Shown one piece after another: positions 12,038 to 31,513 of a stretch of 34,757 bases of DNA (position 1 is the stretch's first letter; each line of letters opens with the position of its first letter). Made by a program: the position numbers and the translations under genes. Below the pieces are notes generated by a model. The model did no database searches, was not told the origin of the DNA, and was given only the letters and a program-made list of their open reading frames with translations. The stretch lies in the IMG/VR virus record IMGVR_UViG_3300046517_002090, one strand, 5' to 3'. The DNA is from a virus.

Positions 12038-13159
12038 CTATATTGAACTATAGTTAACGGAAACAATCACAGCATTATCATTGCTATTGAAGATGATTTT
12101 CTTAATTCCGAAAATCCCCATCATTGCAATACGCTGTAAATTCCCGACGTCTTGAAAATCGCTTTTGATGATAAAGCCAGCTACGTCAGCCTTCCCATCT
12201 GTATAGCCTTTCCCAAACGCAATCCCGCCAGCATCGCGGCCAGTGAAGATATTACGCCTAGAATTGGCAACAGCCGCGGAAGTCCCAGAGTCAACACCGT
12301 TAGGTATCTTGTCAGAGTTAAATACGCGAGTTTGAGAGAAGATGAACGAACGCTGCATCTCACCTTCACCACGACCAGAAGTAATCAACGCTTGTTGAAT
12401 ATCTCTGTACTGTAGAGAAGCTGAAGCATCTGTTAGCAAGTCCATATAACATTGTGTGTGTACGTAATAATGGTATTTGATTTCAGAAGTTTCAGAAAGT
12501 GGGCGTATGTACGGACGTGCTGTTTGTGCTGTAGTTTCGCAAGTCAGAATGTCCGTAAGCTTAGCAGTTGCAGTTGTATCAGCGGCTACCGCTTGGTCAG
12601 TCGTAAGTCCATTTGGTCTTATGATACGAGTTACACCACTTGTCGTAGATGGAGCAACAGCAGCATTTAGCCCTGTGATCTTAAGTCTGTCATTACCAGA
12701 ATATGCTACACCATCATAAGTAATGGTCGTTGCAGTATTGCCGGCTAGCTGATTAAACGCACCAAGAAGGCCACGGGTTTTCATCCATTCAGATTCAACA
12801 CGGTATGTATCTTCTGGAATGTCATAAAGCACACGTTGAGCATCGATTGTGTACGCAGCTGGGTTTTCCACCACAATACGTAGTTGGTCAATGTTCACGT
12901 TATCAGTGAAGTATGTAAGTGCTGATTCAAGACCTGTAGCAGATTGCATACCAAGTAAACCTTGGTCTGTAAGTCTGTTTAGGAATGAAATAGTCACGCG
13001 GTCGCCCGCGGTCTTAGATGTGTTGTCTACGCGGCGTAATGTGCCGGCTTTCATCATCTGTCCCAACATCTCAGTATCCGTAACAAAATCATAGAGGGTA
13101 CGTTCCGACCATAACTTTACGACCGATGCCGAGTTGGTATTAAACGTGGTTACTGCCAT
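12038..13159 (-). CDS. Major capsid protein (373 aa from ATG 13159), N4-gp56-like HK97 fold
   Basis: MAVTTFNTNSASVVKLWSERTLYDF... is typical of N4-gp56-family capsid proteins. SD GAGGA lies 8-9 nt upstream of ATG 13159. The track's 17-aa extension starts at a GTG inside the leader. Confidence 0.85.
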   Translation of the reverse strand: MAVTTFNTNSASVVKLWSERTLYDFVTDTEMLGQMMKAGTLRRVDNTSKTAGDRVTISFLNRLTDQGLLGMQSATGLESALTYFTDNVNIDQLRIVVENPAAYTIDAQRVLYDIPEDTYRVESEWMKTRGLLGAFNQLAGNTATTITYDGVAYSGNDRLKITGLNAAVAPSTTSGVTRIIRPNGLTTDQAVAADTTATAKLTDILTCETTAQTARPYIRPLSETSEIKYHYYVHTQCYMDLLTDASASLQYRDIQQALITSGRGEGEMQRSFIFSQTRVFNSDKIPNGVDSGTSAAVANSRRNIFTGRDAGGIAFGKGYTDGKADVAGFIIKSDFQDVGNLQRIAMMGIFGIKKIIFNSNDNAVIVSVNYSSI

Positions 13160-13395
13160 GTTGAATGTCCTCGTAAAGGTTGAAATATGTAAATATCTCT
13201 TGCCGTTCACGAGGTGGTTTACCGAGGGTACCTTAGCTCGAACCTTTTAGGGAGTTGCTTATCTCCGTTGGCTTTATCGTTGCCCAAATGCAAGTATGGC
13301 TCTGCCTATATTCCCTAACTTGGTATAAAAAGCCGGAAACAAACAAAGCTGTTATATTACAATAACTTATACATATTAAGGAATCAACAATTATA
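13160..13395 (-). promoter_or_regulatory. 236-nt GC-enriched structured leader between scaffold and capsid genes, with an SD-sequestering hairpin
   Basis: mRNA-sense CCUCGUGAA (13214..13206) pairs with UUUACGAGG (13177..13169, containing the SD). That is 9 bp including one G.U, which would be a C-A mismatch on the other strand. Additional nested stems at 13216..13244 and 13251..13266. Possible promoter TTGATT-17-TATTGT just after the scaffold stop. Confidence 0.4.
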
Positions 13396-14440: not shown

Positions 14441-16534
14441 CTATAATTGCTGATTAAATATTGCTGCTATGCGTCTATCCATTTGTTGATGAGTGAAATC
14501 TGTAATCTTAGCGACCTCAGCGGCCGCTTTAGTTTCAGTTAAGTTGATATCCGCAATCATCTTCATTGGCGTATAACGCATATTTTGCTCTTTTTCCATG
14601 GCCTCCATCGTCAATTTATATGCTGATGCAGCCTTGAAGTCAGCTTCAGTGGTGAGTAGACGTTGATTAACTGGATCTGGTTCCTGCGGCGGTGGTGGCT
14701 GGATCATAGCCTTAAGTTCTTTAACAATGGATGCATCAAATGGAGCGTATTCTAGTATAAGAGGCATTAAATCTATTGGATTTGGCTTATTAAGCATCAC
14801 AGATTGCATTTCTAGGAGCTTCATAAATGTTTCTTCCTTCTGATCAGGAGACATTGGCATCTCATCGATCACAACATCGTATTCAGCTGCGATATTATCG
14901 CGTAATAGAGGTACAAATTGCTCGTTTACCTCGCCTAGCACATTATGAATCAGTCTGCCTTCGTTATTTTCAGCGAGAACTCGTACACAGTCTATATATA
15001 GACGTGCTTGTTCCTGTAGATATGATCTTCTCGCATCAAAAAACGTACTCAGCGTAGTTAGACCTTGTTTAATTTGCTGGCGTAGGAAGCTACTATTCTG
15101 TTCTTTGGTATTCATTATACCCATAAGCTCGGGTGTAACGCCACACACAGCCATAATCTGTGCATCTGAGTATTGGATCATTTCCAAAATGCCTTGAGGT
15201 AGCGGTGGAGCTACCTTAGGCATAACTTTACCTGTAGATAAGGCTCCGGGTTCATAAACAGAGACTTGTCTAGCTTTGGTATAAGTATCTAAGAACCCTT
15301 GGAGATCAGATACAGCATCGCGTTCGATGTTGACGCCACCCTTAGGTATTGTATTTAGAAAACCTTGGTAATCCGATATCACTTGATTAAGCACCCTTTG
15401 CGGCGCTTTGCAAGCACGTAGGAGGCCAAAATCATATTGAGTGAGCTCTGAAAAGTCTCCGGTCATAAATTTCACTGAGAAGCCTTCCTGTGAGTAATTC
15501 TCAGATTTACTAACAACATTATTCCCGGTGATTATGGCACGGAAATATTTATACATGTATTGCGTGGCATAAGTAACCTTGATGCCAAAGAACTTCATAG
15601 ACTCGCGAAACTTATTATAAGCGCCTTTTTCGGTGATTGCGAATGTCTGATCTAGCTTAGGATTAAAGTTGTATTCATCAGCGTAAAATGCAATGGTGGC
15701 ATCAAGCATGGTTACAAACTCTTCGACGCCGTCCATTGTCATGATGCCACTATCCATTGCTAGCTGCATTGGATCTAAATCTTTAAAGGGATTTTCTACT
15801 TGATAGAATGGTTGCTTTTTACGCCATTGATATTCATAGACAACACCAAGTTGTTTCACAGCTAGAACTGCTTGGAAGAATTCTAGTATACGAGCGTCTA
15901 AAGCACTGGAATATATATCATTAAAGTACTCAACGCCATATTCTTGACGAATGATATCACGGTTTACTACCTTGAGACGTACCACGTAATCGCTGTCCAT
16001 CTTATTCTTGCGACGCGATGCAGGATCCCAAAATAGAAACGCAGGCATAACACGTTCTACTCTGAATTCTCCATCATGTGGCGGCTTGCTATAATCCATC
16101 AAAGTATCAGTTGCGCCAACTCCGCAGATTAGCATGTCCTGAAAAGCAAGAGTATACTCCAGATCTGCATTAGTCTTCTGTTCTATGTATTTAACGGCAT
16201 TATTGAGTACATCATTAAAGCCATTCTGCTCTTCATCATTAAGCCTAGGGATATATTTAACATTTAATCTATTCTGTATCTCGAAGCCAACTATAGACTG
16301 GATAACAGGTTTAACCCTATTGATAGTAATAATAGGCATGCCATTAGCATTCTGGCGTTCAATATCATCTTTGGTCCATTGATCGCCTTCATACATAGCG
16401 AAAGACTCGCGCACTTCGATCTCACGCCAGTCTTGTTCGATCATTAAGTTTTCATTGATGCGCTTTTCCATTTCTCTGATGATCTGTTCGTCATCTTCCA
16501 TGCCTAGCAATTCTTTGGGCTCATCAAGCAACAT
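14441..16534 (-). CDS. Portal protein (697 aa)
   Basis: Size, position, and the N-terminal motif ...FAMYEGDQWTKDDIERQNANGMPIITINRVKPVIQSIVG..., which is typical of portal proteins. Confidence 0.85.
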   Translation of the reverse strand: MLLDEPKELLGMEDDEQIIREMEKRINENLMIEQDWREIEVRESFAMYEGDQWTKDDIERQNANGMPIITINRVKPVIQSIVGFEIQNRLNVKYIPRLNDEEQNGFNDVLNNAVKYIEQKTNADLEYTLAFQDMLICGVGATDTLMDYSKPPHDGEFRVERVMPAFLFWDPASRRKNKMDSDYVVRLKVVNRDIIRQEYGVEYFNDIYSSALDARILEFFQAVLAVKQLGVVYEYQWRKKQPFYQVENPFKDLDPMQLAMDSGIMTMDGVEEFVTMLDATIAFYADEYNFNPKLDQTFAITEKGAYNKFRESMKFFGIKVTYATQYMYKYFRAIITGNNVVSKSENYSQEGFSVKFMTGDFSELTQYDFGLLRACKAPQRVLNQVISDYQGFLNTIPKGGVNIERDAVSDLQGFLDTYTKARQVSVYEPGALSTGKVMPKVAPPLPQGILEMIQYSDAQIMAVCGVTPELMGIMNTKEQNSSFLRQQIKQGLTTLSTFFDARRSYLQEQARLYIDCVRVLAENNEGRLIHNVLGEVNEQFVPLLRDNIAAEYDVVIDEMPMSPDQKEETFMKLLEMQSVMLNKPNPIDLMPLILEYAPFDASIVKELKAMIQPPPPQEPDPVNQRLLTTEADFKAASAYKLTMEAMEKEQNMRYTPMKMIADINLTETKAAAEVAKITDFTHQQMDRRIAAIFNQQL

Positions 16535-16869: not shown

Positions 16870-17129
16870 GTGTTCTCTCCTGTTTTGAATTTTAATTTAG
16901 GCCTTCCAACTTTTCGTTTGCCAAGACGTATAGCTTCTGGATCTTGTTCTATAAGTTTTGCTATATAGTTTATAGCAATATCATTGCGTTCAGCTATTTT
17001 CAGACTTTCAGCAGCTACCCATTTTGTGGACTTTAGCTCAGAGTCTAAATTTTCGAAATATTCCTTCACAAAGAAGTTCTCCAACGCTTTGAGTCTAGCT
17101 TGCAGGTCTTTAATAATGGTGTTAATCAT
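16866..17129 (-). CDS. Hypothetical coiled-coil protein (87 aa from ATG 17129)
   Basis: ATGA overlap with the terL stop at 17126-17129. The longer track ORF (to 17189) would overlap terL by 64 nt. Confidence 0.5.
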   Translation of the reverse strand: MINTIIKDLQARLKALENFFVKEYFENLDSELKSTKWVAAESLKIAERNDIAINYIAKLIEQDPEAIRLGKRKVGRPKLKFKTGENT

Positions 17130-18664
17130 TTGTATAACTCGTAGTAATTTATAGTATTGTAACCGGGATATTGAATTGTTATATCGCATAGCCTGCTCAT
17201 AGCGTCAAGTAAATCATCATGAATACCAACAGGAAAAGTGGAATACTCTTGTATGACAAATTCGTCTATCACATCTATTGCCTGGTTTTTATAATTGGTC
17301 TTGTATAATAACTTAGGCAAAAAGATTTTGCGATCAGCGAAATAGGATATCAACCGTCTAATGCGATCTTCTTTAGATACTTTACCGCCGACTTCTTGGA
17401 TATGAAATCTATAGTTGCGATCATCCATAGCCTTACGCAGCCAATCAGCATCGCATTGCATGCCATATTTCTCATAAACTACTGATTTAGGCTTGTATTT
17501 CGCATGTAGCTCAAATAGCTTTTCTTCCCGTTCTCGCACATTTAATCTATCTCGCACAAGGTCAACTAAGTATAAATTACCGTCACCTCCTGCGCCCATT
17601 ACAACTATTGCTGTATAATCAGAGTCTTTACTTTTGGAGTTGGCAGGATCCACGAATATGTAATAGTTCAGCGTCCCAAAAGTAAGCGCGTCATAATACA
17701 TCAGCCATTCAGTACGGAATTCGCCACCTCCTTCAGGACTTGGGCGTTGTTGATATTGGCCTGAGAAAGCATATGAACCGACTTCATTCTTAATACGTGC
17801 AATCTCTTCATGATCTATGCGAGATGGCTGCAAGAGATCGCCAGTCTTACGTTCGACATTAATATAGCCTTTGCTTAAGATCTCGTCGCATTCTGCTATC
17901 ATCGGCAGGCAAAGATGCTCCCAGCCGCCTTTAGCAAGAAGGTGGCCCGTTAAATCATCCTCATGCAATCTTTGCATAATAACTATAATGCAACCTGTGC
18001 GTTTGTCATTGAGCCTAGTTGAAAAAGTCTGATCGAACCATGTATTAGCTGATTCACGAAAAGCTGTTGATTCGCCCTGTTTAGCGCTGACTGGATCATC
18101 GACTATTAGATATTGCGCTCCTTCGCCAGTAGCTGTGCCGCCAACACTGGTTGCGATTCTATGTCCACGCGCGCTAGTTATAAACTTACGCTTGGTATTT
18201 TGATCGTCAACTATTTGTGTGGCAGGGAAGAGATCTTTATACCATTGCTGTTGCATTACCAATCTACAGTCTTGGGCATGCTTAAAGCTTAGATCTTGTG
18301 AATAGGAAGCACACATAATCTGTTCGCCCGGATTATGCCCTAGAAGCCATGCTGGGAATGCTACATTGACAGAAATGGATTTAAGATGCCGCGGTGGAAT
18401 ATTAATAATCAACCGCTTAATATCCCCGCGTTGGCAAGCAAGCAGATACTGTGCAATCAAATCTATATGCCAATTATGTATATAGTCGGCTTCTGGAGAG
18501 ACTGTGTTAACTACTTGTTGTATAAATGGAGCTAGATAGCGTCTTAGACCATCTTTGATCATGATGCGGTCTTCAGCTATTGGCATCTTGGCTCTTAGTG
18601 GACGCGGATAATAATTGTGTGTATGCCATAGCCCAATTTCTACGTTCTTCAACATTGGTAGCAT
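17126..18664 (-). CDS. terL: Terminase large subunit
   Basis: ATPase/nuclease architecture. Includes LIINIPPRHLKS, YLIVDDPVSAK (Walker-B-like) and a C-terminal nuclease segment ...YIFVDPANSKSKDSDYTAIVV... Confidence 0.9.
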   Translation of the reverse strand: MLPMLKNVEIGLWHTHNYYPRPLRAKMPIAEDRIMIKDGLRRYLAPFIQQVVNTVSPEADYIHNWHIDLIAQYLLACQRGDIKRLIINIPPRHLKSISVNVAFPAWLLGHNPGEQIMCASYSQDLSFKHAQDCRLVMQQQWYKDLFPATQIVDDQNTKRKFITSARGHRIATSVGGTATGEGAQYLIVDDPVSAKQGESTAFRESANTWFDQTFSTRLNDKRTGCIIVIMQRLHEDDLTGHLLAKGGWEHLCLPMIAECDEILSKGYINVERKTGDLLQPSRIDHEEIARIKNEVGSYAFSGQYQQRPSPEGGGEFRTEWLMYYDALTFGTLNYYIFVDPANSKSKDSDYTAIVVMGAGGDGNLYLVDLVRDRLNVREREEKLFELHAKYKPKSVVYEKYGMQCDADWLRKAMDDRNYRFHIQEVGGKVSKEDRIRRLISYFADRKIFLPKLLYKTNYKNQAIDVIDEFVIQEYSTFPVGIHDDLLDAMSRLCDITIQYPGYNTINYYELYK

Positions 18665-25328: not shown

Positions 25329-25574
25329 ATGTCCAGAACACTAAAAGAACCGACTTCTTGTAGATCGATAAGAATGAATGCACGTACAATCAGTAGGTTA
25401 ATGGCAGCGAGTAGATATTTTTGTTGCCCACCTGGAACTTTAATATCTTTATTATTAGATGCTACCAGACTTTCAGCGATCAAGAACTCTAACATTCCCG
25501 ATGAAATTGTATCTAATTTCTACAAGGAAGTACAGGGCTATGCGGATACAGAGACATATTTATTTAAGGATTGA
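25329..25574 (+). CDS. Hypothetical early protein (81 aa; alternative start at 25374)
   Basis: ORF track. Its stop overlaps the exonuclease start region. Weak SD AGGT. Confidence 0.3.
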   Translation: MSRTLKEPTSCRSIRMNARTISRLMAASRYFCCPPGTLISLLLDATRLSAIKNSNIPDEIVSNFYKEVQGYADTETYLFKD

Positions 25575-25576
25575 TC

Positions 25577-26503
25577 ATGGCGCTTACAATACAACAACGT
25601 ATCGACCGTAGATTAGGCGTTGGTGGCTCCGATATCGCAGCTATCTTAGGCATTAGTAGGTATAGCACTCCTCTTGATATATATTTAGAGAAGCTTTCTA
25701 CAGATGAACCCCAAGATAGCGTAGATAACCAGTTTATAGAGTGGGGCAACCGCTTAGAATCAGTCATCATAGAGAAGTTTGAAGATCTAACAGGTATCAA
25801 ATGCGCTACGGGACTTGATACTTTTATTCATCCAACATATACTTATATGAGAGCTAACATTGATGCGAAGTTAATAGGTGAAAACGCTATACTGGAATGT
25901 AAAACAGCTGGGCAATTCGCTAGTAAGGAATGGTCTACACTTGGTGGAGATAATATTCCTGAGCCTTATTTACTGCAGTGCGCTTATTATGCTGAAATTA
26001 CAGAATGCACTAAAGTATATATCGCGGTACTTATAGGTGGTAATGACTTTAGAATATATAGTTATGATCGTAATCCTGCTCTTGGCAAGCTTATTGTTGC
26101 CAAGGTCGTAGACTTTTGGGAAGGACATGTTTTAAAACAAATTCCACCAGATCCCATAAATCACGAAGATGCTCTAAAATTATGGCGCACCACAGAATCA
26201 GATGAATTGAGATTAGCCACTGATGAGATTCTAGACGTACTGAAAGAAGTACGTTCTTTGAAAGCTGATAAACATAATATAGAAGTCCAACTAGGCCTAA
26301 AGCAAATGGAGTTATATAATTTCATGCAATCAGCTCAACAGATCAATTCTCAAAGCGGTGATCCATTAGTAACTTGGAAAATGCAATCTAGCAAACGCTT
26401 CGATGCCAAACGCTTTATGATCGAACATCCAGAGATGTATAATCTATACATAAAGACTTCAGAAACACGCGTATTAAGAATTAAAGGAGATAAGAATGAT
26501 TAG
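25577..26503 (+). CDS. YqaJ-family (lambda Exo-like) recombination exonuclease
   Basis: GVGGSDIAAILGISRYSTPLDIY..., ANIDAKL...ILECKTA (PD-(D/E)XK) and YLLQCAYYAEI. ATG 25577 has SD AAGGA 6 nt upstream. The track start at 25571 is TTG. Confidence 0.8.
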   Translation: MALTIQQRIDRRLGVGGSDIAAILGISRYSTPLDIYLEKLSTDEPQDSVDNQFIEWGNRLESVIIEKFEDLTGIKCATGLDTFIHPTYTYMRANIDAKLIGENAILECKTAGQFASKEWSTLGGDNIPEPYLLQCAYYAEITECTKVYIAVLIGGNDFRIYSYDRNPALGKLIVAKVVDFWEGHVLKQIPPDPINHEDALKLWRTTESDELRLATDEILDVLKEVRSLKADKHNIEVQLGLKQMELYNFMQSAQQINSQSGDPLVTWKMQSSKRFDAKRFMIEHPEMYNLYIKTSETRVLRIKGDKND

Positions 26504-27098
26504 GACTCCAAAGCAAATTGAGAGCCAAGTTGTAAAGGATTATAATGATGGAATGAAATTCAAAGACATCATCTCCAAATATCCTTTAGGGCATTCCACG
26601 ATAGATAGCATCTTAAAAAGAAATAAGGACATGGTGATTAAGAGGAAAGAGATCAATACCCCTCTTATTAGGTTTATGAGATCTTACATAGATAATGGGA
26701 TAGACGAATGCTTCATTTGGAATGGGCAAAGATTTAGAAATGGATATGGCCGCTTTGAAGTAAAAAAACGTTACTATTTAGCACATAGGATTTCATATGA
26801 GCATTACTATGGATATAAGCCATTGCCAAAAGAGGTAGTAATGCATAAATGCGATAATCCGTGCTGCGTTAACCCTTTGCATCTAGCACTTGGCTCACAA
26901 AGCGATAATATCCAAGATATGCTTAACAAAGGTAGAGCTGCTTTTGGTGAGAAGGCCAATAGAAAAAAGCTTAAAGTTGCTGATGTACTAGAGATACGTA
27001 AATCTACCGATACACAAATAGCTTTGGCAAAAAAATATAATGTTAGCAGAGCTGCTATATACAAGATTAAAGCAAACAAAAACTGGAGATACTTATGA
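26496..27098 (+). CDS. HNH homing-type endonuclease with flanking HTH modules
   Basis: CFIWNGQRFRNGYGRF...AHRISYEHYYG...VMHKCDNPCCVNPLHLALGSQSDNIQDM (HNH_3-like). ATGA overlaps with both neighbouring genes. Confidence 0.8.
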   Translation: MIRTPKQIESQVVKDYNDGMKFKDIISKYPLGHSTIDSILKRNKDMVIKRKEINTPLIRFMRSYIDNGIDECFIWNGQRFRNGYGRFEVKKRYYLAHRISYEHYYGYKPLPKEVVMHKCDNPCCVNPLHLALGSQSDNIQDMLNKGRAAFGEKANRKKLKVADVLEIRKSTDTQIALAKKYNVSRAAIYKIKANKNWRYL

Positions 27099-27937
27099 GT
27101 AATATTACAAAAACAGAAACATTTTCTTTCGTGCCTAGGAATTTAGAAGAGGCGATGAAATATGCTGAAATGATGTCTAAAAGTCAATTGGTTCCTAAAA
27201 GCTATCAGACTAAGCCTGCAGATATATTGATAGCTGTACAAATGGGCATGGAACTAGGCCTCAAACCCATTCAATCCCTGCAAAACATCGCAGTAATCAA
27301 TGGCAAGCCTTGTATCTATGGTGATGCATGTATGGCATTAGTAAAAATCCATCCTGAATTTGAAGATGTAACAGAACACTTTGATGAATCCTTGCAAGCT
27401 GCTATCTGTAAAGTAAAACGCCGCGGTCAAACCGTACATACTAGTGTCTTTACCATAGAAGATGCAAAGAAAGCCGGCTTATGGAATAGACAAGGGCCAT
27501 GGACTCAATACCCAAGACGTATGTTGCAAATGCGTGCCAGAGGCTTTGCGTTAAGAGATGCGTTCCCTGATGCGCTACAAGGATTGATACTTGCTGAAGA
27601 AGCTCATGATCATCCACGCGAAGTAGAAACTATAGGAGAATCAAAGACTTACACTTCCACTACTGAAAAACTCATCGCAAATCTAGGATCAGCAAAACAT
27701 ATGCCAATTCCTGAAGATGCAATAATCCAAAGTGACCCAACTAATGGAGTTATAGTAGAAGCTGAAATTATGCCCGAAGTCTCTCTAGCTGAACAGCTCA
27801 CTATACTTATAGATGATAAAGCGGTGCCGATAGAAGTTATACAGAAGTGGCTTAGCAAATCTGGTGTAGCTAAACTATCGGATATGTCAGATGAAGATTT
27901 AACCAAGTGCATTGCGTTTGTGCATGAGAAGTATTAA
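27095..27937 (+). CDS. recT: RecT-family single-strand annealing protein
   Basis: ...MSKSQLVPKSYQTKPADILIAVQMGMELGLKPIQSLQNIAVINGKPCIYGDA... is typical of RecT. Paired with the YqaJ exonuclease. Confidence 0.8.
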   Translation: MSNITKTETFSFVPRNLEEAMKYAEMMSKSQLVPKSYQTKPADILIAVQMGMELGLKPIQSLQNIAVINGKPCIYGDACMALVKIHPEFEDVTEHFDESLQAAICKVKRRGQTVHTSVFTIEDAKKAGLWNRQGPWTQYPRRMLQMRARGFALRDAFPDALQGLILAEEAHDHPREVETIGESKTYTSTTEKLIANLGSAKHMPIPEDAIIQSDPTNGVIVEAEIMPEVSLAEQLTILIDDKAVPIEVIQKWLSKSGVAKLSDMSDEDLTKCIAFVHEKY

Positions 27938-27948
27938 AAGAACAAACT

Positions 27949-28038
27949 GGAGAGGTGGCCGAGTGGTTTATGGCTGCAGTCTTGAAAACTGCCGTATGGG
28001 CAACCGTACCGTGAGTTCGAATCTCACTCTCTCCGCCA
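27949..28038 (+). tRNA. tRNA-Ser: tRNA-Ser (anticodon UGA), class II, CCA encoded
   Basis: Manual fold. Acceptor GGAGAGG/TCTCTCC. 3-bp D stem GCC/GGC. Anticodon stem GCAGT/ACTGC with loop CTTGAAA. Long variable arm GTATGG-GCAA-CCGTAC. T arm GTGAG-TTCGAAT-CTCAC. Discriminator G plus CCA. Confidence 0.85.
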
Positions 28039-28042
28039 AATT

Positions 28043-28480
28043 ATGGAAAAGTATATGAGTGATAATCAATATCGTCTTAATAGAAAACACAAAATAGAGC
28101 TTAGCAAATATGAATATCAATATTTACTAGAATATTTAGAAGCCATGAAGAATATCTTTTTACAATGCAAGGTGCATCCTGCAAGACTTGGCGATGTAAT
28201 AGATGTGATTCAAGCAATTAGAGCTAATACATATGAGATAGAGCAGCCGATTCAATGCAAGGAAATAATCATTGATAAAGATACTGTGAAAGCGGCCCTT
28301 CCTGAAACTGGTTATCTAAGACAAGCCCAAGTCTTAAGATTAATACCTGTAGGTAAAAGCACATGGTGGAATGGTATAAAGTCAGGTCGCTTTCCGAAAG
28401 GAGTGAATCTAGGTGGCAGGGTAACTGCTTGGAAAGTAGAAGACATTCGAGAATTAATAGAAAAGCTTAACAATCAATAA
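28043..28480 (+). CDS. AlpA-like (excisionase/regulator-type) HTH protein with an N-terminal extension (145 aa)
   Basis: The C-terminal ...YLRQAQVLRLIPVGKSTWWNGIKSGRFPKGVNLGGRVTAWKVEDIRELI matches the AlpA / prophage CP4-57 regulatory family pattern. Confidence 0.6.
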   Translation: MEKYMSDNQYRLNRKHKIELSKYEYQYLLEYLEAMKNIFLQCKVHPARLGDVIDVIQAIRANTYEIEQPIQCKEIIIDKDTVKAALPETGYLRQAQVLRLIPVGKSTWWNGIKSGRFPKGVNLGGRVTAWKVEDIRELIEKLNNQ

Positions 28481-28807: not shown

Positions 28808-29254
28808 ATGATTCCAATACATGGGTACTTCTACATGATTGAAAAAACTCCATTAATGCTCGCTGTTACTAAAGGAGCTCTTTTTGATGTATATAATTTA
28901 TTAGAAAATGCAGTGGATATTCATACTTTTGACTTGAATGGTAATACAGCTTTACATCATTGCATTATGACTCCTCAAGGAAGCATAGGAGCAAGATTAA
29001 GTCTTAAAATCTCTGGTTTGCTCATACAATATGGCGCCGATCCAAATGATCGCAATATCAATGGGTTAAGCTGTTACGATCTATGCGATTCGAATGCTTT
29101 TAAAACTTTCATAGAAAACTTACATGAAGATTATAGAACGCAATTAGCTTCTACTAATATTCCCTTATCTAAGGTGGGTTCTAAATTACAAGGATTAGAG
29201 AATATTAAGATGTCGTCGCATCAGGAAGAAAGGATTATCTTCTTTAGTCAGTAA
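28808..29254 (+). CDS. Ankyrin-repeat protein (148 aa; alternative start at 28835)
   Basis: TPLMLAVTKGALFDVYNLLENAVDIHTFDLNGNTALHHCIM ... LLIQYGADPNDRNINGLSCYDLC are ANK repeat signatures. Confidence 0.75.
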   Translation: MIPIHGYFYMIEKTPLMLAVTKGALFDVYNLLENAVDIHTFDLNGNTALHHCIMTPQGSIGARLSLKISGLLIQYGADPNDRNINGLSCYDLCDSNAFKTFIENLHEDYRTQLASTNIPLSKVGSKLQGLENIKMSSHQEERIIFFSQ

Positions 29255-29312
29255 TGTAATTATTACATCAAGTAAAGTCCTTAATGTAATTTGGTGCGTT
29301 TTTTACATTAAG
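29254..29312. terminator. Two AT-rich hairpins sharing a TAATGTAA motif, 3' of the ankyrin gene
   Basis: ATGTAAT-T-ATTACAT (29254..29268), and CTTAATGTAA-(13 nt)-TTACATTAAG (29280..29312). Confidence 0.45.
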
Positions 29313-29450
29313 CAATAGGCCGGAATTGCACCGGCTAGATATGTCTTAGGACGGTAGGCTTGCAAAAGGGCAACCGTATCATATCTCGTTAATAGCTCAC
29401 TTTTCTTAGCCTTTCCACTTATGCGCTTCTCTGTCAGCACCGCTATTGCT
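29311..29450. ncRNA. Structured GC-enriched intergenic element (strand unknown)
   Basis: Closing helix AGCAATAG/CTATTGCT (29311..29318 with 29443..29450). Hairpin GCCGG-7-CCGGC (29319..29335). Long hairpin GATATG...ACGG...TTGC-AAAAGG-GCAA CCGT...CATATC (29338..29385). No ORF. Lies between convergent genes. Confidence 0.3.
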
Positions 29451-29502
29451 ATAGTTAAGATATACTAATTCAAGCTACTTAGGAATTATTTATGACTAGG
29501 TA

Positions 29503-29733
29503 TTATTTCTCTATTTCATCTTTAAGACTTTCTACAACCGCTTCAAAATGCGATGCACTAATAATCGTCACATACTTTCCATCACTATTAGATCCTTTGC
29601 CAAGAAATATTATGGGTTCATCATTGGCTAATATAGGCATATCTTGATCTAGCTTCTGTAGAGTCTCGATCATTCCTTTAACGGTTGGAGTAGTATTCAT
29701 TGTATTTTCTATAAGCTCAACTTGATCAGTCAT
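29503..29733 (-). CDS. Hypothetical small protein (76 aa)
   Basis: SD AGGAG lies 5 nt upstream. Monocistronic, between hairpins. Confidence 0.55.
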   Translation of the reverse strand: MTDQVELIENTMNTTPTVKGMIETLQKLDQDMPILANDEPIIFLGKGSNSDGKYVTIISASHFEAVVESLKDEIEK

Positions 29734-30049
29734 TATTTCTCCTAAATATTTAACTCTAATAATAGATTAGAGATTAGTTTCTATTCTATATACTACATCT
29801 AGCATAATACTAATATATTCGAATAGACCTCTTTACAATTATGAGCAATCTATTTCCTATCGAATTCCACTCTCACTATAAAATAACACATCTCTATATC
29901 CGAAACCAGTTGCCGAAACAGAAAGTGTGTGATACATTGCCAAAAGAGGTTACGGATACAGATATAAGCGACGCTGACTTGGATGGGTACAATCTAAGAT
30001 GCCATATGGAACTTTGGCTTATTTCATAACACTCTACAAGCTTGGCTGT

Positions 30050-30119
30050 TGGTATATAGTTTAATTGGTAGAATGGTGCTTTTGAGCACTAGATGCGAGT
30101 TCGAGTCTTGCTGTGCCAA
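30050..30119 (+). tRNA. tRNA-like gene (70 nt) with canonical acceptor, D and T arms but a shortened, non-canonical anticodon arm; identity unclear (UUU/UUG-like)
   Basis: Acceptor TGGTATA/TGTGCCA (two G.U pairs). U8. D arm GTTT-AATTGGTA-GAAT with A14, G18, G19 and A21. T arm GCGAG-TTCGAGT-CTTGC. Discriminator A. The anticodon region GGTGCTTTTGAGCACT folds only as 6 bp + UUUG, 5 bp + 6-nt loop, or 4 bp + 8-nt loop. Flanking CTGT/ACAG extends the acceptor helix to 11 bp (30046..30122). Confidence 0.5.
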
Positions 30120-30144
30120 CAGTTTTAACATTTAGGAGAAAGAA

Positions 30145-30408
30145 ATGATCGATACACATAAAGAAATTATATTTTTAGTAAAAGAACGGAAATGGAAACA
30201 AGATAAAGCTGAGGATGTTGTGAATCTTTTTCAACGTCAAGCTGAGAAAGGGTATGAGAGTTTGGCTACTAAAGCTGATCTGGCAGACCTTAAAGGAGAA
30301 ATAAAAACCTTGAATATGAAGATTACAATGTTTATGTGGTTTATCGCAATAGTAGTGGCTCTATTAGAATGTGCACCATATATCATGAAAATTGTGACTA
30401 AGGGATAA
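30145..30408 (+). CDS. Coiled-coil protein with a C-terminal TM helix (87 aa; DUF1640/XhlA-like)
   Basis: SD AGGAG upstream. ...LATKADLADLKGEIKTLNMKITMFMWFIAIVVALL... Its stop is 2 nt before the recombinase ATG. Confidence 0.6.
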   Translation: MIDTHKEIIFLVKERKWKQDKAEDVVNLFQRQAEKGYESLATKADLADLKGEIKTLNMKITMFMWFIAIVVALLECAPYIMKIVTKG

Positions 30409-30410
30409 TA

Positions 30411-30974
30411 ATGAAAATAGGCTACGCACGCATCTCCACCAAAGATCAAAACCTCGAAGGCCAAATTGAGACTTTAAAGCAAGCTGGCTGCGATAGAATC
30501 TTTAGCGAACAAGTATCTGGGCGTAAAGCCCGGATGCCAGAATTTGATAACTGTATGGCGTTTCTACGTGAGGGAGATTCTTTAGTAGTAAGGCATATAG
30601 ACCGGCTTAACCGCGGCACTCTAGAATTGCTTATGCTATATGAAGAGTTAAAGCAACGTAAGATAACGCTCATATCGGTACTGCAACCTGTGGATTTTAG
30701 TGATCCTACGCTAGGCAAACTTTTCTTCCAGATCTTTAGCATGTTCGCTGAATGTGAACATAACATTGCTTCAGAACGGAGCTACGATGGTATGATGAGA
30801 GCTAGGGAGCGTGGCGGCCCACATGGACGACCACCTAAATTAACTCCAGAAAAACAAGGTTTGCTATGTGATGCATATCAGACTAAAAAGCATACTATAA
30901 AGGAGCTAGCCCGCATGTTCGATGTAGGCACTTCAGCTATAATGCGATATACACAGGAGTTTAGACATGGATGA
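30411..30974 (+). CDS. Small serine recombinase, Gin/Hin/Cin invertase-like (187 aa)
   Basis: MKIGYARISTKDQNLEGQ (catalytic Ser motif), DSLVVRHIDRLNRG, and GRPPKLT followed by a C-terminal HTH (IKELARMFDVGTSAIMRY). Confidence 0.85.
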   Translation: MKIGYARISTKDQNLEGQIETLKQAGCDRIFSEQVSGRKARMPEFDNCMAFLREGDSLVVRHIDRLNRGTLELLMLYEELKQRKITLISVLQPVDFSDPTLGKLFFQIFSMFAECEHNIASERSYDGMMRARERGGPHGRPPKLTPEKQGLLCDAYQTKKHTIKELARMFDVGTSAIMRYTQEFRHG

Positions 30975-31224
30975 AGAATTTTCAGAAGAAGAAATTGCCG
31001 AAATAAATGAAGCTTGGGAATCAATCGCTAATGATAGAATGGGAATGGATCTTGCTATTTTATTATCAGTACAAAGTATCGCAAGATTTCAGACAAACTT
31101 GAGTATCTCTCATAAAATAATACAAATGGAAGTTTGGATGGAAGGAATAAAATGTTTACGAAATACTTTAAATCGCTCAATGCCTTCAAATCAGGAGGCA
31201 TCAGATGATCAAGAAATACACTAA
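30967..31224 (+). CDS. Highly acidic small protein (85 aa)
   Basis: ORF track. Overlaps the recombinase stop by 8 nt. MDEEFSEEEIAEINEAWE... and ...EASDDQEIH. Confidence 0.55.
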   Translation: MDEEFSEEEIAEINEAWESIANDRMGMDLAILLSVQSIARFQTNLSISHKIIQMEVWMEGIKCLRNTLNRSMPSNQEASDDQEIH

Positions 31225-31513
31225 AACACAAAAAGAAGCTCTAAATGCTTTTAAAACTTATATCACATCATTAGAATATGGATCTACCTTTGCTGCATTA
31301 GCTAGTATGCAGATCAAAATGTATACTGAAGATATGAATGATGAAGAAAGTCTAGATTTAATGAAAATATGGTGCGGCGCATTTATGGAGTTAATGTGCA
31401 ATTTAATACATGATGATTTCGAAGAGGATTTCGGATCTTTATTGGATAATATGAGTGATGCTTTTCCAGAAGATTTCCGTAAAATCTCATTGAAAGATAC
31501 AAAATTGCATTAA
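31205..31513 (+). CDS. Highly acidic small protein (102 aa)
   Basis: ORF track. D/E-rich (…EDMNDEESLDL…HDDFEEDFGSLLDNMSDAFPEDF…). Confidence 0.55.
   Translation: MIKKYTKTQKEALNAFKTYITSLEYGSTFAALASMQIKMYTEDMNDEESLDLMKIWCGAFMELMCNLIHDDFEEDFGSLLDNMSDAFPEDFRKISLKDTKLH

Follow-up and report, generated by a model that had tools for sequence, protein, structure and literature searches.

The 34,757-nucleotide (nt) stretch IMGVR_UViG_3300046517_002090 of an uncultured soil phage (hereafter the window; all positions are counted along its one strand) carries at 30050–30119 a tRNA look-alike that we named copy B. Copy B is a maintained RNA part that heads an operon, not a broken tRNA or a sequencing error. 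Judged from its sequence, it almost certainly reads no codons. Our preferred explanation, to which we assign a probability of about 0.45, is that copy B is a non-decoding tRNA mimic that may act in cis as a processing or stability module for tRNA-processing enzymes and may also yield a stable small tRNA-like RNA.

Structure of copy B

ARAGORN found two genes in the window, a normal tRNA-Ser(UGA) at 27949–28038 and a “tRNA-???” at 30050–30120 (+) with a 2-nt anticodon “tt”, whose anticodon arm it read with a 6-nt loop. The Rfam tRNA model RF00005 matched 30050–30119 with 48.5 bits against a gathering score of 29 (E 1.4e-7, whole window searched), and its alignment deletes loop positions of the model. 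The parts of the element are as follows.

30050–30119 (+): tRNA look-alike “copy B”, 70 nt, with acceptor, D, mini anticodon and T arms, a variable loop of 5 nt and discriminator A (ARAGORN, Rfam and six homologous copies)
30076–30089 (+): mini anticodon arm, stem GUGCU/AGCAC (5 bp, 30076–30080 with 30085–30089) and loop UUUG (4 nt, 30081–30084) (sequence and minimum-energy fold)
30046–30049 (+): 5′ leader strand CUGU of a 4-bp acceptor extension, partner 30119–30122, paired and invariant in 6 of 6 copies
30119–30122 (+): 3′ extension strand, the discriminator A plus CAG; CCA is not encoded (sequence)

As read from the sequence, the acceptor stem has 7 bp (UGGUAUA with UGUGCCA), and U8, A9, A14, G18, G19 and A21 are present. 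The D stem is GUUU/GAAU with the D loop AAUUGGUA, the variable loop is UAGAU, the T stem is GCGAG/CUUGC with the T loop UUCGAGU, and the discriminator is A30119. All elbow and core nucleotides are in place: U8-A14, A15-U48, G18/G19 with U55/C56, U54-A58, and A9 with U12-A23. The initial annotation, made from the letters alone, had pointed out the tRNA landmarks, the 7-bp acceptor stem and a deficit of about 3 nt; this description is correct. Compared with a standard tRNA, exactly 3 nt are missing, and all of them from the anticodon loop.

A canonical tRNA has a 5-bp anticodon stem and a 7-nt loop with U33, a 3-nt anticodon and a purine at position 37; copy B has no such loop. Position 26 is G30075, which could form a sixth anticodon-stem pair with U30090. 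It had been claimed that the arm cannot form a 7-nt loop. This holds, and the short arm is also found in five homologues. The leader CUGU pairs with A73-C-A-G and lengthens the acceptor helix to 11 bp, an extension (CTGT/ACAG) that had likewise been proposed and that is paired in six copies as well as in the minimum-energy fold. The 77-nt stretch with both extension strands folds at −28.3 kcal/mol (z = −4.3; 1 of 200 shuffles was as good), and this minimum-energy structure contains both the tetraloop hairpin and the 11-bp helix.

A canonical tRNA also has a free discriminator and, where it is encoded, a 3′ CCA; the A-CAG end of copy B is paired with the leader. The true tRNAs of these phages do encode CCA: both tRNA-Ser (window 27949–28038) and the tRNA-Asn of the relative L001 (listed below) end in GCCA. 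The look-alikes end in A-CAG, G-UAA or A-CAA, none with CCA. Copy B has lost the 7-nt anticodon loop, the free discriminator and the CCA end, and has kept the acceptor/T-arm stack and the elbow.

Conservation in related phages

Protein-anchored and pattern searches recovered five loci with copy B. A sixth relative has a different tRNA-like RNA in the copy-B position.

L001 (also L002, L087): IMG/VR 3300020062_000005, a complete 36.8-kb genome, copy B present
L003: IMG/VR 3300047312_000491, copy B present
L084: JGI soil contig, copy B present
L086: 36.6-kb contig, copy B present
L098 (also L175): IMG/VR 3300006802_000056, copy B present
L096 (also L177): IMG/VR 3300026116_000026, different tRNA-like RNA in the copy-B position

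The locus comparison covered these loci; homologues of the downstream invertase known from Logan assemblies only (P0006, P0008, P0009) lie outside it. In all five relatives, copy B is 87–94% identical in nucleotides to the window copy. The invertase gene 300 nt downstream is 64–69% identical in nucleotides and 58–61% in protein in four of those five, and the L001 invertase is 88% and 99% identical to that of the window. Copy B is thus more conserved than the invertase, and the RNA is under much stronger constraint than the adjoining coding sequence.

In the six-way alignment the D arm, the first three acceptor pairs and the 4-bp extension are invariant, as is the T loop except for one change at R57, and the helix base CUGUUGG/CCAACAG is unchanged across the set. 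Variation falls in acceptor pairs 4–7, in one or two T-stem pairs and mostly in the anticodon arm. On the cloverleaf, 98.7% of the pair cells of the six copies are standard pairs; when the partners were slid as a control, the paired share fell to 32–50%. All five anticodon-stem pairs vary among the homologues and all are still paired. Double changes in this stem include G-C to A-U in L003 (pair 39-49) and, once the register has shifted by 1 nt, U-A to C-G in L084. Tested against shuffles, covariation within copy B was not significant (183 of 500 for the six copies), as the six sequences are too similar, and we take the pairing as consistency and not as proof. The statistical support for covariation comes from copy A, a second look-alike described below.

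We looked for the odd loop in the related phages: the short arm is kept in five and the loop letters vary. The loop is UUUG in the window and L001, UUUA in L003, UUUC in L086, UUUU in L098 and CUUGA in L084. Since the loop sequence differs among the homologues, the anticodon is not conserved.

A search among sequencing runs showed that 17 soil, rhizosphere and water metagenome runs hold part or all of the locus. We compared contigs of four of these runs, none marked as the possible source, with it; as assembled contigs they report the common sequence, rare variants being outside their reach. Contigs of runs X4 (1197 nt), X5 (655 nt) and X7 (151 nt), from other samples and studies, cover 30005–30155 with no other letter and no gap, which rules out a T-run indel specific to one assembly. 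That copy B is an ordinary tRNA mis-assembled through an indel in the T-run at 30080–30083, or altered by a sequencing indel there as the initial annotation had considered, therefore has a probability close to nil: three independent runs are identical, and in five homologues from separate assemblies the arm is equally long or longer by one nucleotide.

Among phage records and bacterial genomes no copy was found. Megablast of 29000–31500 against 50,697 phage records gave zero matches. Sensitive blastn of the element gave only partial 76–83% matches to ordinary tRNAs, such as a Listeria phage tRNA-Thr. With the portal protein, tblastn gave matches of at most 31% identity, and at most 29% where most of the query aligned, and hence no close cultured relative. 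Two pattern scans of 185,579 bacterial species genomes found no copy of the element, and thus no prophage copy or host.

The operon leader and its first module

Copy B is the second of two structured modules between a promoter-like site and the first gene of an operon, whose features in the window are these.

29910–29938 (+): promoter-like site, −35 TTGCCG (29910–29915), 17-nt spacer, −10 TACATT (29933–29938) (sequence; position kept in relatives)
29945–30035 (+): first leader module, a cloverleaf-like four-way junction of 90 nt (minimum-energy fold), in the slot that copy A has in relatives
30037–30044 (+): self-complementary 8-mer CAAGCUUG in the linker between the modules, kept in 5 of 6 loci
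30134–30408 (+): ribosome-binding site AGGAGA (30134–30139) and first open reading frame (ORF; 30145–30408, 87 amino acids) (ORF list and translation)
30411–30974 (+): second operon gene, a small serine recombinase of the Hin/Gin invertase type, 187 amino acids (Pfam Resolvase 1.9e-36; PHROG 125 “DNA invertase” 1.9e-51)

The upstream gene (29503–29733) is on the opposite strand; if the element is transcribed, its promoter must therefore lie in the gap. A TTGnnn-17-TAnnnT pair stands at equal distance upstream of a conserved CAAAAGAGG in 7 of 7 related loci. In the window it has 8 of 12 consensus positions and is absent from the consensus-scan list. From this pair we infer a transcription start near 29945, about 1–4 nt from the beginning of the first closing helix. 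All 7 loci share one layout: the promoter-like pair, about 7 nt, CAAAAGAGG opening the first closing helix, module 1, a linker, module 2, 14–20 nt, AGGAGA and the first ORF. The initial annotation had placed the element at the head of a serine-recombinase operon. This stands with two refinements: the 87-amino-acid ORF at 30145–30408 lies between them, and a second cloverleaf-like RNA (29945–30035) precedes copy B in the same leader.

In L001, L086, L096 and L098 the first module is itself a tRNA look-alike, copy A, about 20 nt upstream of the copy-B slot (Rfam 29–44 bits). Its anticodon arm is 1 nt short, with a 6-bp stem and a 6-nt loop AUUGUA or AUUGUG; L098 has instead a hairpin of 4 bp and 6 nt. 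The T loop is UUUGAUU, and three copies have AGUGAUA as their D loop. Instead of the elbow pair G19-C56 there is A19-U56 in three of the four copies and G19-U56 in L001. The same D and T loops are found in a bona fide phage tRNA-Gly(GCC) of L176, which indicates that copy A descends from a real tRNA type. Across the four copies, 7 pairs have both sides changed, a number reached by 0 of 500 shuffles. Six of these 7 lie in one 16-bp helix, in which the 7-bp acceptor stem is continued by a 5-bp leader-trailer extension, with the discriminator as part of it, and then by the closing AGAG/CUCU stem. Because the extension covaries, the leader-trailer pairing of copy A is selected and not a matter of chance. 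As read from its sequence, and consistent with its fold, the second-position tRNA-like RNA of L096 has an extension of 8 bp.

In the window and L003, copy A is replaced by the module at 29945–30035 with the same closing helix, AGAGGUUA with UAAC-A-CUCU, which encloses three hairpins, one of them with a stem of 7 bp and a loop of 7 nt. Aligned with L003, the module has 26 pairs in the RNAalifold consensus, 3 of them with compensatory changes. Rfam gave no tRNA match for this module even at E 10, and no Rfam family recognises it. In L084 the first module is only a short hairpin that resembles a deletion derivative of copy A. The slot between the promoter-like site and the ribosome-binding site is kept, and the type of module in it is exchanged among relatives.

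The linker of L001 has another perfect palindrome, CAUGCAUG. Eight nucleotides are too short for self-folding, so the linker palindrome could serve either in dimerisation between RNAs or, as DNA, in binding a dimeric protein; with one variant only, chance is also a possible origin.

The product of the first ORF is a small protein with a coiled coil and a membrane helix at its C terminus (PHROG 3556, function not assigned); a CCDC90-like hint for this protein is sub-threshold and was seen in a paralogue only. Downstream of the leaders lie one to four such small coiled-coil membrane-helix proteins, then the serine recombinase and then two small acidic ORFs. In five phages these acidic ORFs (window 30967–31513, and relatives) share exactly 20 nt with the gene before them, and in L084 there is also a 20-nt overlap between the invertase and the ORF behind it. 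Each downstream ORF of such a pair has its own start codon, with a Shine-Dalgarno-like site upstream in four of five phages. The 20-nt overlaps look like conserved translational coupling.

About 105 nt upstream of the −35 hexamer is an operator-like dyad, ATACTA-CATC-TAGCAT (29790–29805), kept as ACTACATCTAGTAT in L001, L003, L084 and L098. A 21-nt inverted repeat (29733–29753 and 30124–30144, 86% complementary) flanks the 370-bp segment with the promoter-like site and the RNAs, beside the invertase gene. Its arms coincide with two divergent ribosome-binding sites and start regions, and the same motif is also found ahead of further genes in these phages. We consider an invertible promoter unlikely, since the repeat is a start-region motif and the contigs of the four runs showed no inversion joint. 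We also rejected an intrinsic terminator after the acceptor helix; the U-run behind CAG is not kept (L003 and L086 differ), and a terminator scan found none.

The window as a whole is a phage genome of roughly 35 kb with about 38% G+C. Besides AlpA-like, ankyrin-repeat, tail-collar and SGNH esterase genes it has the following.

12038–13210: capsid
14441–16534: portal
17126–18664: large terminase
25571–27937: YqaJ/RecE-like exonuclease and RecT

Just after RecT comes a CCA-encoding tRNA, followed within a few to about 20 nt by an AlpA-type gene (window 27949–28480; L001 166–470). This tRNA is Ser(UGA) in the window and Asn(GUU) in L001, so that the position is kept and the identity has changed. 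The ankyrin-repeat gene is at 28808–29254 (Pfam Ank, 4e-7), and the portal protein has a weak match (26% over 179 amino acids) to an “ankyphage” of Candidatus Megaira. Together these two hint that the host could be associated with eukaryotic cells.

A covariance model built from copy B (R1) picked up a promoter-proximal tRNA-like RNA in a distant 37.5-kb phage, G003 (L179 1501–1591, 30 bits). Its arm, GCUGU-CGCA-ACGGC, also has a tetraloop, and it lies in a structured leader of about 300 nt. Neither ARAGORN nor Rfam called it, which makes it a weak lead; it may be a distant cousin of copy B. Just upstream (L179 1395–1437) is the 3′ part of a tRNA, with T arm, acceptor strand and CCA, possibly an att remnant. 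Other RecT-carrying contigs (L008 5086–5156 (−), L014 4851–4941 (+), L009–L013, L017, L022, L027) gave ARAGORN “tRNA-???” calls with 6-nt loops. Among these contigs is also a series of 91–93-nt “tRNA-Lys(CUU)” calls, about 0.7–1.1 kb downstream of RecT, which look like tRNAs with insertions.

Possible functions and comparison with known systems

We propose that the leader is transcribed from the promoter about 105 nt upstream of copy B, so that the 5′ leader of the operon would contain a pair of cloverleaf modules, with copy B in second place. The elbow and the acceptor/T-arm stack would be the features read by host tRNA-processing enzymes: RNase P would cut on the 5′ side, and RNase Z or an endonuclease of that kind on the 3′ side. 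The cuts would release a stable small tRNA-like RNA and would set the 5′ end of the mRNA about 15 nt before the ribosome-binding site. The leader-trailer helix would keep the module in shape inside the longer transcript, as in pre-mascRNA. RNase P and RNase Z use the acceptor/T-arm stack and the elbow of tRNA. Copy B has what marks a tRNA-like processing element, namely this stack, the elbow, a reduced anticodon arm and, presumably, a place within a longer transcript. The structure of RNase P substrates is discussed in PMC4919922; according to the same source, bacterial RNase P cleaves mRNAs and phage regulatory RNAs. That module 1 can be a tRNA look-alike, another cloverleaf or a hairpin, depending on the phage, is in keeping with a generic structural role.

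Several points weigh against this proposal. Bacterial RNase P is usually hampered by a paired 5′ leader, and the 8-bp extension in L096 would need to be opened, or the cut made by another enzyme. The conservation of copy B goes beyond the need of a cutting signal read by shape only, and there could be a sequence-specific partner. Finally, transcription and cleavage are deduced, and none of the sequencing runs found to hold the locus is of an RNA type.

Because copy B is nearly invariant and paired leaders are poor for RNase P, we give a substantial share to a role in trans, which we consider possible although on balance unlikely. Here the released RNA would be a tRNA mimic or decoy that binds, blocks or titrates a host protein recognising tRNA bodies. 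This protein could be a defence nuclease that cleaves tRNA, an enzyme that modifies tRNA or adds CCA, or a stress sensor; without an anticodon loop the RNA would be uncleavable. In six phages the extension, the first three acceptor pairs and the D arm and T loop are conserved beyond what shape needs, the loop stays U-rich (UUU in 5 of 6 copies), and PMC10264068, PMC11464382 and PMC11555353 describe phage tRNAs that counter tRNA-targeting defences. The phage counter-measures that are known, however, supply working replacement tRNAs, and dead mimics are not among them. The anticodon loop read by PrrC and other anticodon nucleases is missing from copy B. The free exchange of the first module for non-tRNA cloverleafs or a hairpin is better explained by a generic role, and no partner gene was found in the window. 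On the same footing we put forward, tentatively, that this phage group encodes dedicated tRNA mimics without an anticodon, whose stem is capped by a tetraloop, whose discriminator is paired and which lack CCA; they might act in trans on a host machine that recognises tRNA, for instance by jamming an immune nuclease that cleaves tRNA or an enzyme that processes or senses it. Less probable again is a structured leader that acts in cis and stays uncleaved, as a 5′ stabiliser against 5′-end-dependent decay, a protein scaffold (Y-RNA-like, of the Yrn1 topology) or a modifier of RNA polymerase. The first closing helix does begin within about 1–4 nt of the inferred start, and the helix extensions covary, so that the paired, unprocessed form is under selection; Yrn1 of D. 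radiodurans, moreover, is described as tRNA-like with a 5-bp “anticodon” stem and a 6-nt loop (PMC4201824). A plain hairpin would be enough as a 5′ stabiliser, though, and would leave the retained tertiary nucleotides of the D and T loops unexplained. A Y RNA proper was rejected: no Ro/TROVE gene was found among the 40 window ORFs searched against Pfam, cmscan of 29700–30200 matched neither a Y RNA nor any other non-tRNA Rfam family even at E 10, and the stretch read has no GNCGAAN0-1G motif, the mark of YrlA RNAs (PMC4201824).

The remaining readings keep copy B as a tRNA gene, dead or alive, and both are very improbable. A non-functional relic, either a decaying tRNA gene or an att-site remnant as the initial annotation had considered, would explain why copy B cannot decode, and the first module of L084, which looks like a deletion derivative of copy A, shows that module decay occurs in this leader. 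Yet copy B is conserved far above the adjoining gene (87–94% against 64–69%), the substitutions avoid breaking pairs, and the nucleotides of tertiary interactions are intact; the whole cloverleaf with its leader-trailer pairing is kept, and not the 3′ half alone as at att sites. Slightly more doubtful still is an unusual working decoder, either a +1 frameshift suppressor with the 8-nt loop CUUUUGAG, which had also been proposed, or a Gln/Lys-type tRNA with a 6-nt loop. The acceptor pairs U1-A72, G2-C71 and G3-C70 together with G10 resemble the identity set of E. coli tRNA-Gln, and ARAGORN called the L084 copy tRNA-Gln(UUG) with a 7-nt loop CCUUGAG. That call requires C33 and three G-U pairs and leaves no nucleotide 26. 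An 8-nt loop needs a 4-bp stem and would open pairs that are kept by covariation, and the arm as a whole lacks 3 nt instead of having 1 nt too many. At the fourth loop position the phages differ (G, A, C or U), so each phage would read another codon. CCA is not encoded, the discriminator is paired, and among the nearby ORFs there is no need for frameshifting, as the overlapping ones of the operon (85 and 102 amino acids) have their own Shine-Dalgarno sites and start codons.

Among the known systems closest to copy B are mascRNA and menRNA, at the 3′ ends of MALAT1 and NEAT1 (PMC8457004). They too are tRNA-shaped modules in a longer transcript, with good acceptor and T arms, a reduced, non-decoding anticodon arm, an acceptor extended by leader-trailer pairing and no encoded CCA. 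In mascRNA this extended acceptor stem is required for efficient maturation by RNase P (PMC8457004). The difference is that mascRNA, a nuclear RNA of eukaryotes, lies at the 3′ end of a non-coding RNA, and copy B in a phage mRNA's 5′ leader; cleavage has been shown for mascRNA, whereas that of copy B is a proposal. The t-elements of plant mitochondria are non-canonical cloverleafs that serve as cis signals for RNase P and RNase Z and define the 5′ and 3′ ends of mRNAs (PMC1920247). They resemble copy B as aberrant cloverleafs beside mRNA ends, some of them upstream of coding regions, but are organellar and have no sequence relationship to it; copy B has much more canonical D and T loops and belongs to a tandem pair directly behind a promoter.

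YrlA and D. radiodurans Yrn1 (PMC4201824) share with copy B a non-decoding tRNA-like domain with the tertiary nucleotides of the D and T arms; in the Yrn1 model with its 5-bp stem and 6-nt loop, the ends leave via the acceptor side. In contrast to Y RNAs, copy B is part of an mRNA leader, has no Ro/TROVE gene nearby and no Ro-binding stem motif, and the extension is only 4–9 bp. The C4 antisense RNA of P1 and P7 is likewise a small structured RNA between a promoter and a first gene in a temperate-style phage, and is an RNase P substrate (both cited in PMC4919922). C4-type RNAs act by antisense pairing of loops with the downstream mRNA, whereas copy B has no excess complementarity. We rejected a C4/CI-type antisense RNA, as the RNAduplex energies for copy B and the 120 nt that follow it, a rough test limited to the proximal region, were no better than those of shuffles in 6 of 6 phages, and an Rfam C4 match is absent. 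The anticodon-nuclease-evading phage tRNAs of PMC10264068 are also phage tRNA-type genes whose anticodon loop differs from the host form; as described there they have a 7-nt loop and still decode, in contrast to the 4-nt loop, missing CCA and paired discriminator of copy B.

Phage tRNA genes are usually seen as codon supplements or as replacements for tRNAs destroyed by defences. In copy B, selection has kept a tRNA body that is unable to decode and that is built into an operon leader beside a second cloverleaf module. It is a new variation, in a phage operon leader, on the theme of tRNA-like elements. If copy B is a cutting signal, it would be the counterpart in a bacterial virus of mascRNA and of the organellar t-elements, and these phages would borrow the tRNA-processing machinery of the host in shaping their mRNAs. 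A role in trans would make it a tRNA decoy of a new kind, distinct from the strategy of replacement tRNAs. Either way, “tRNA-???” calls in phage genomes should not be thrown out as pseudogenes by annotation pipelines.

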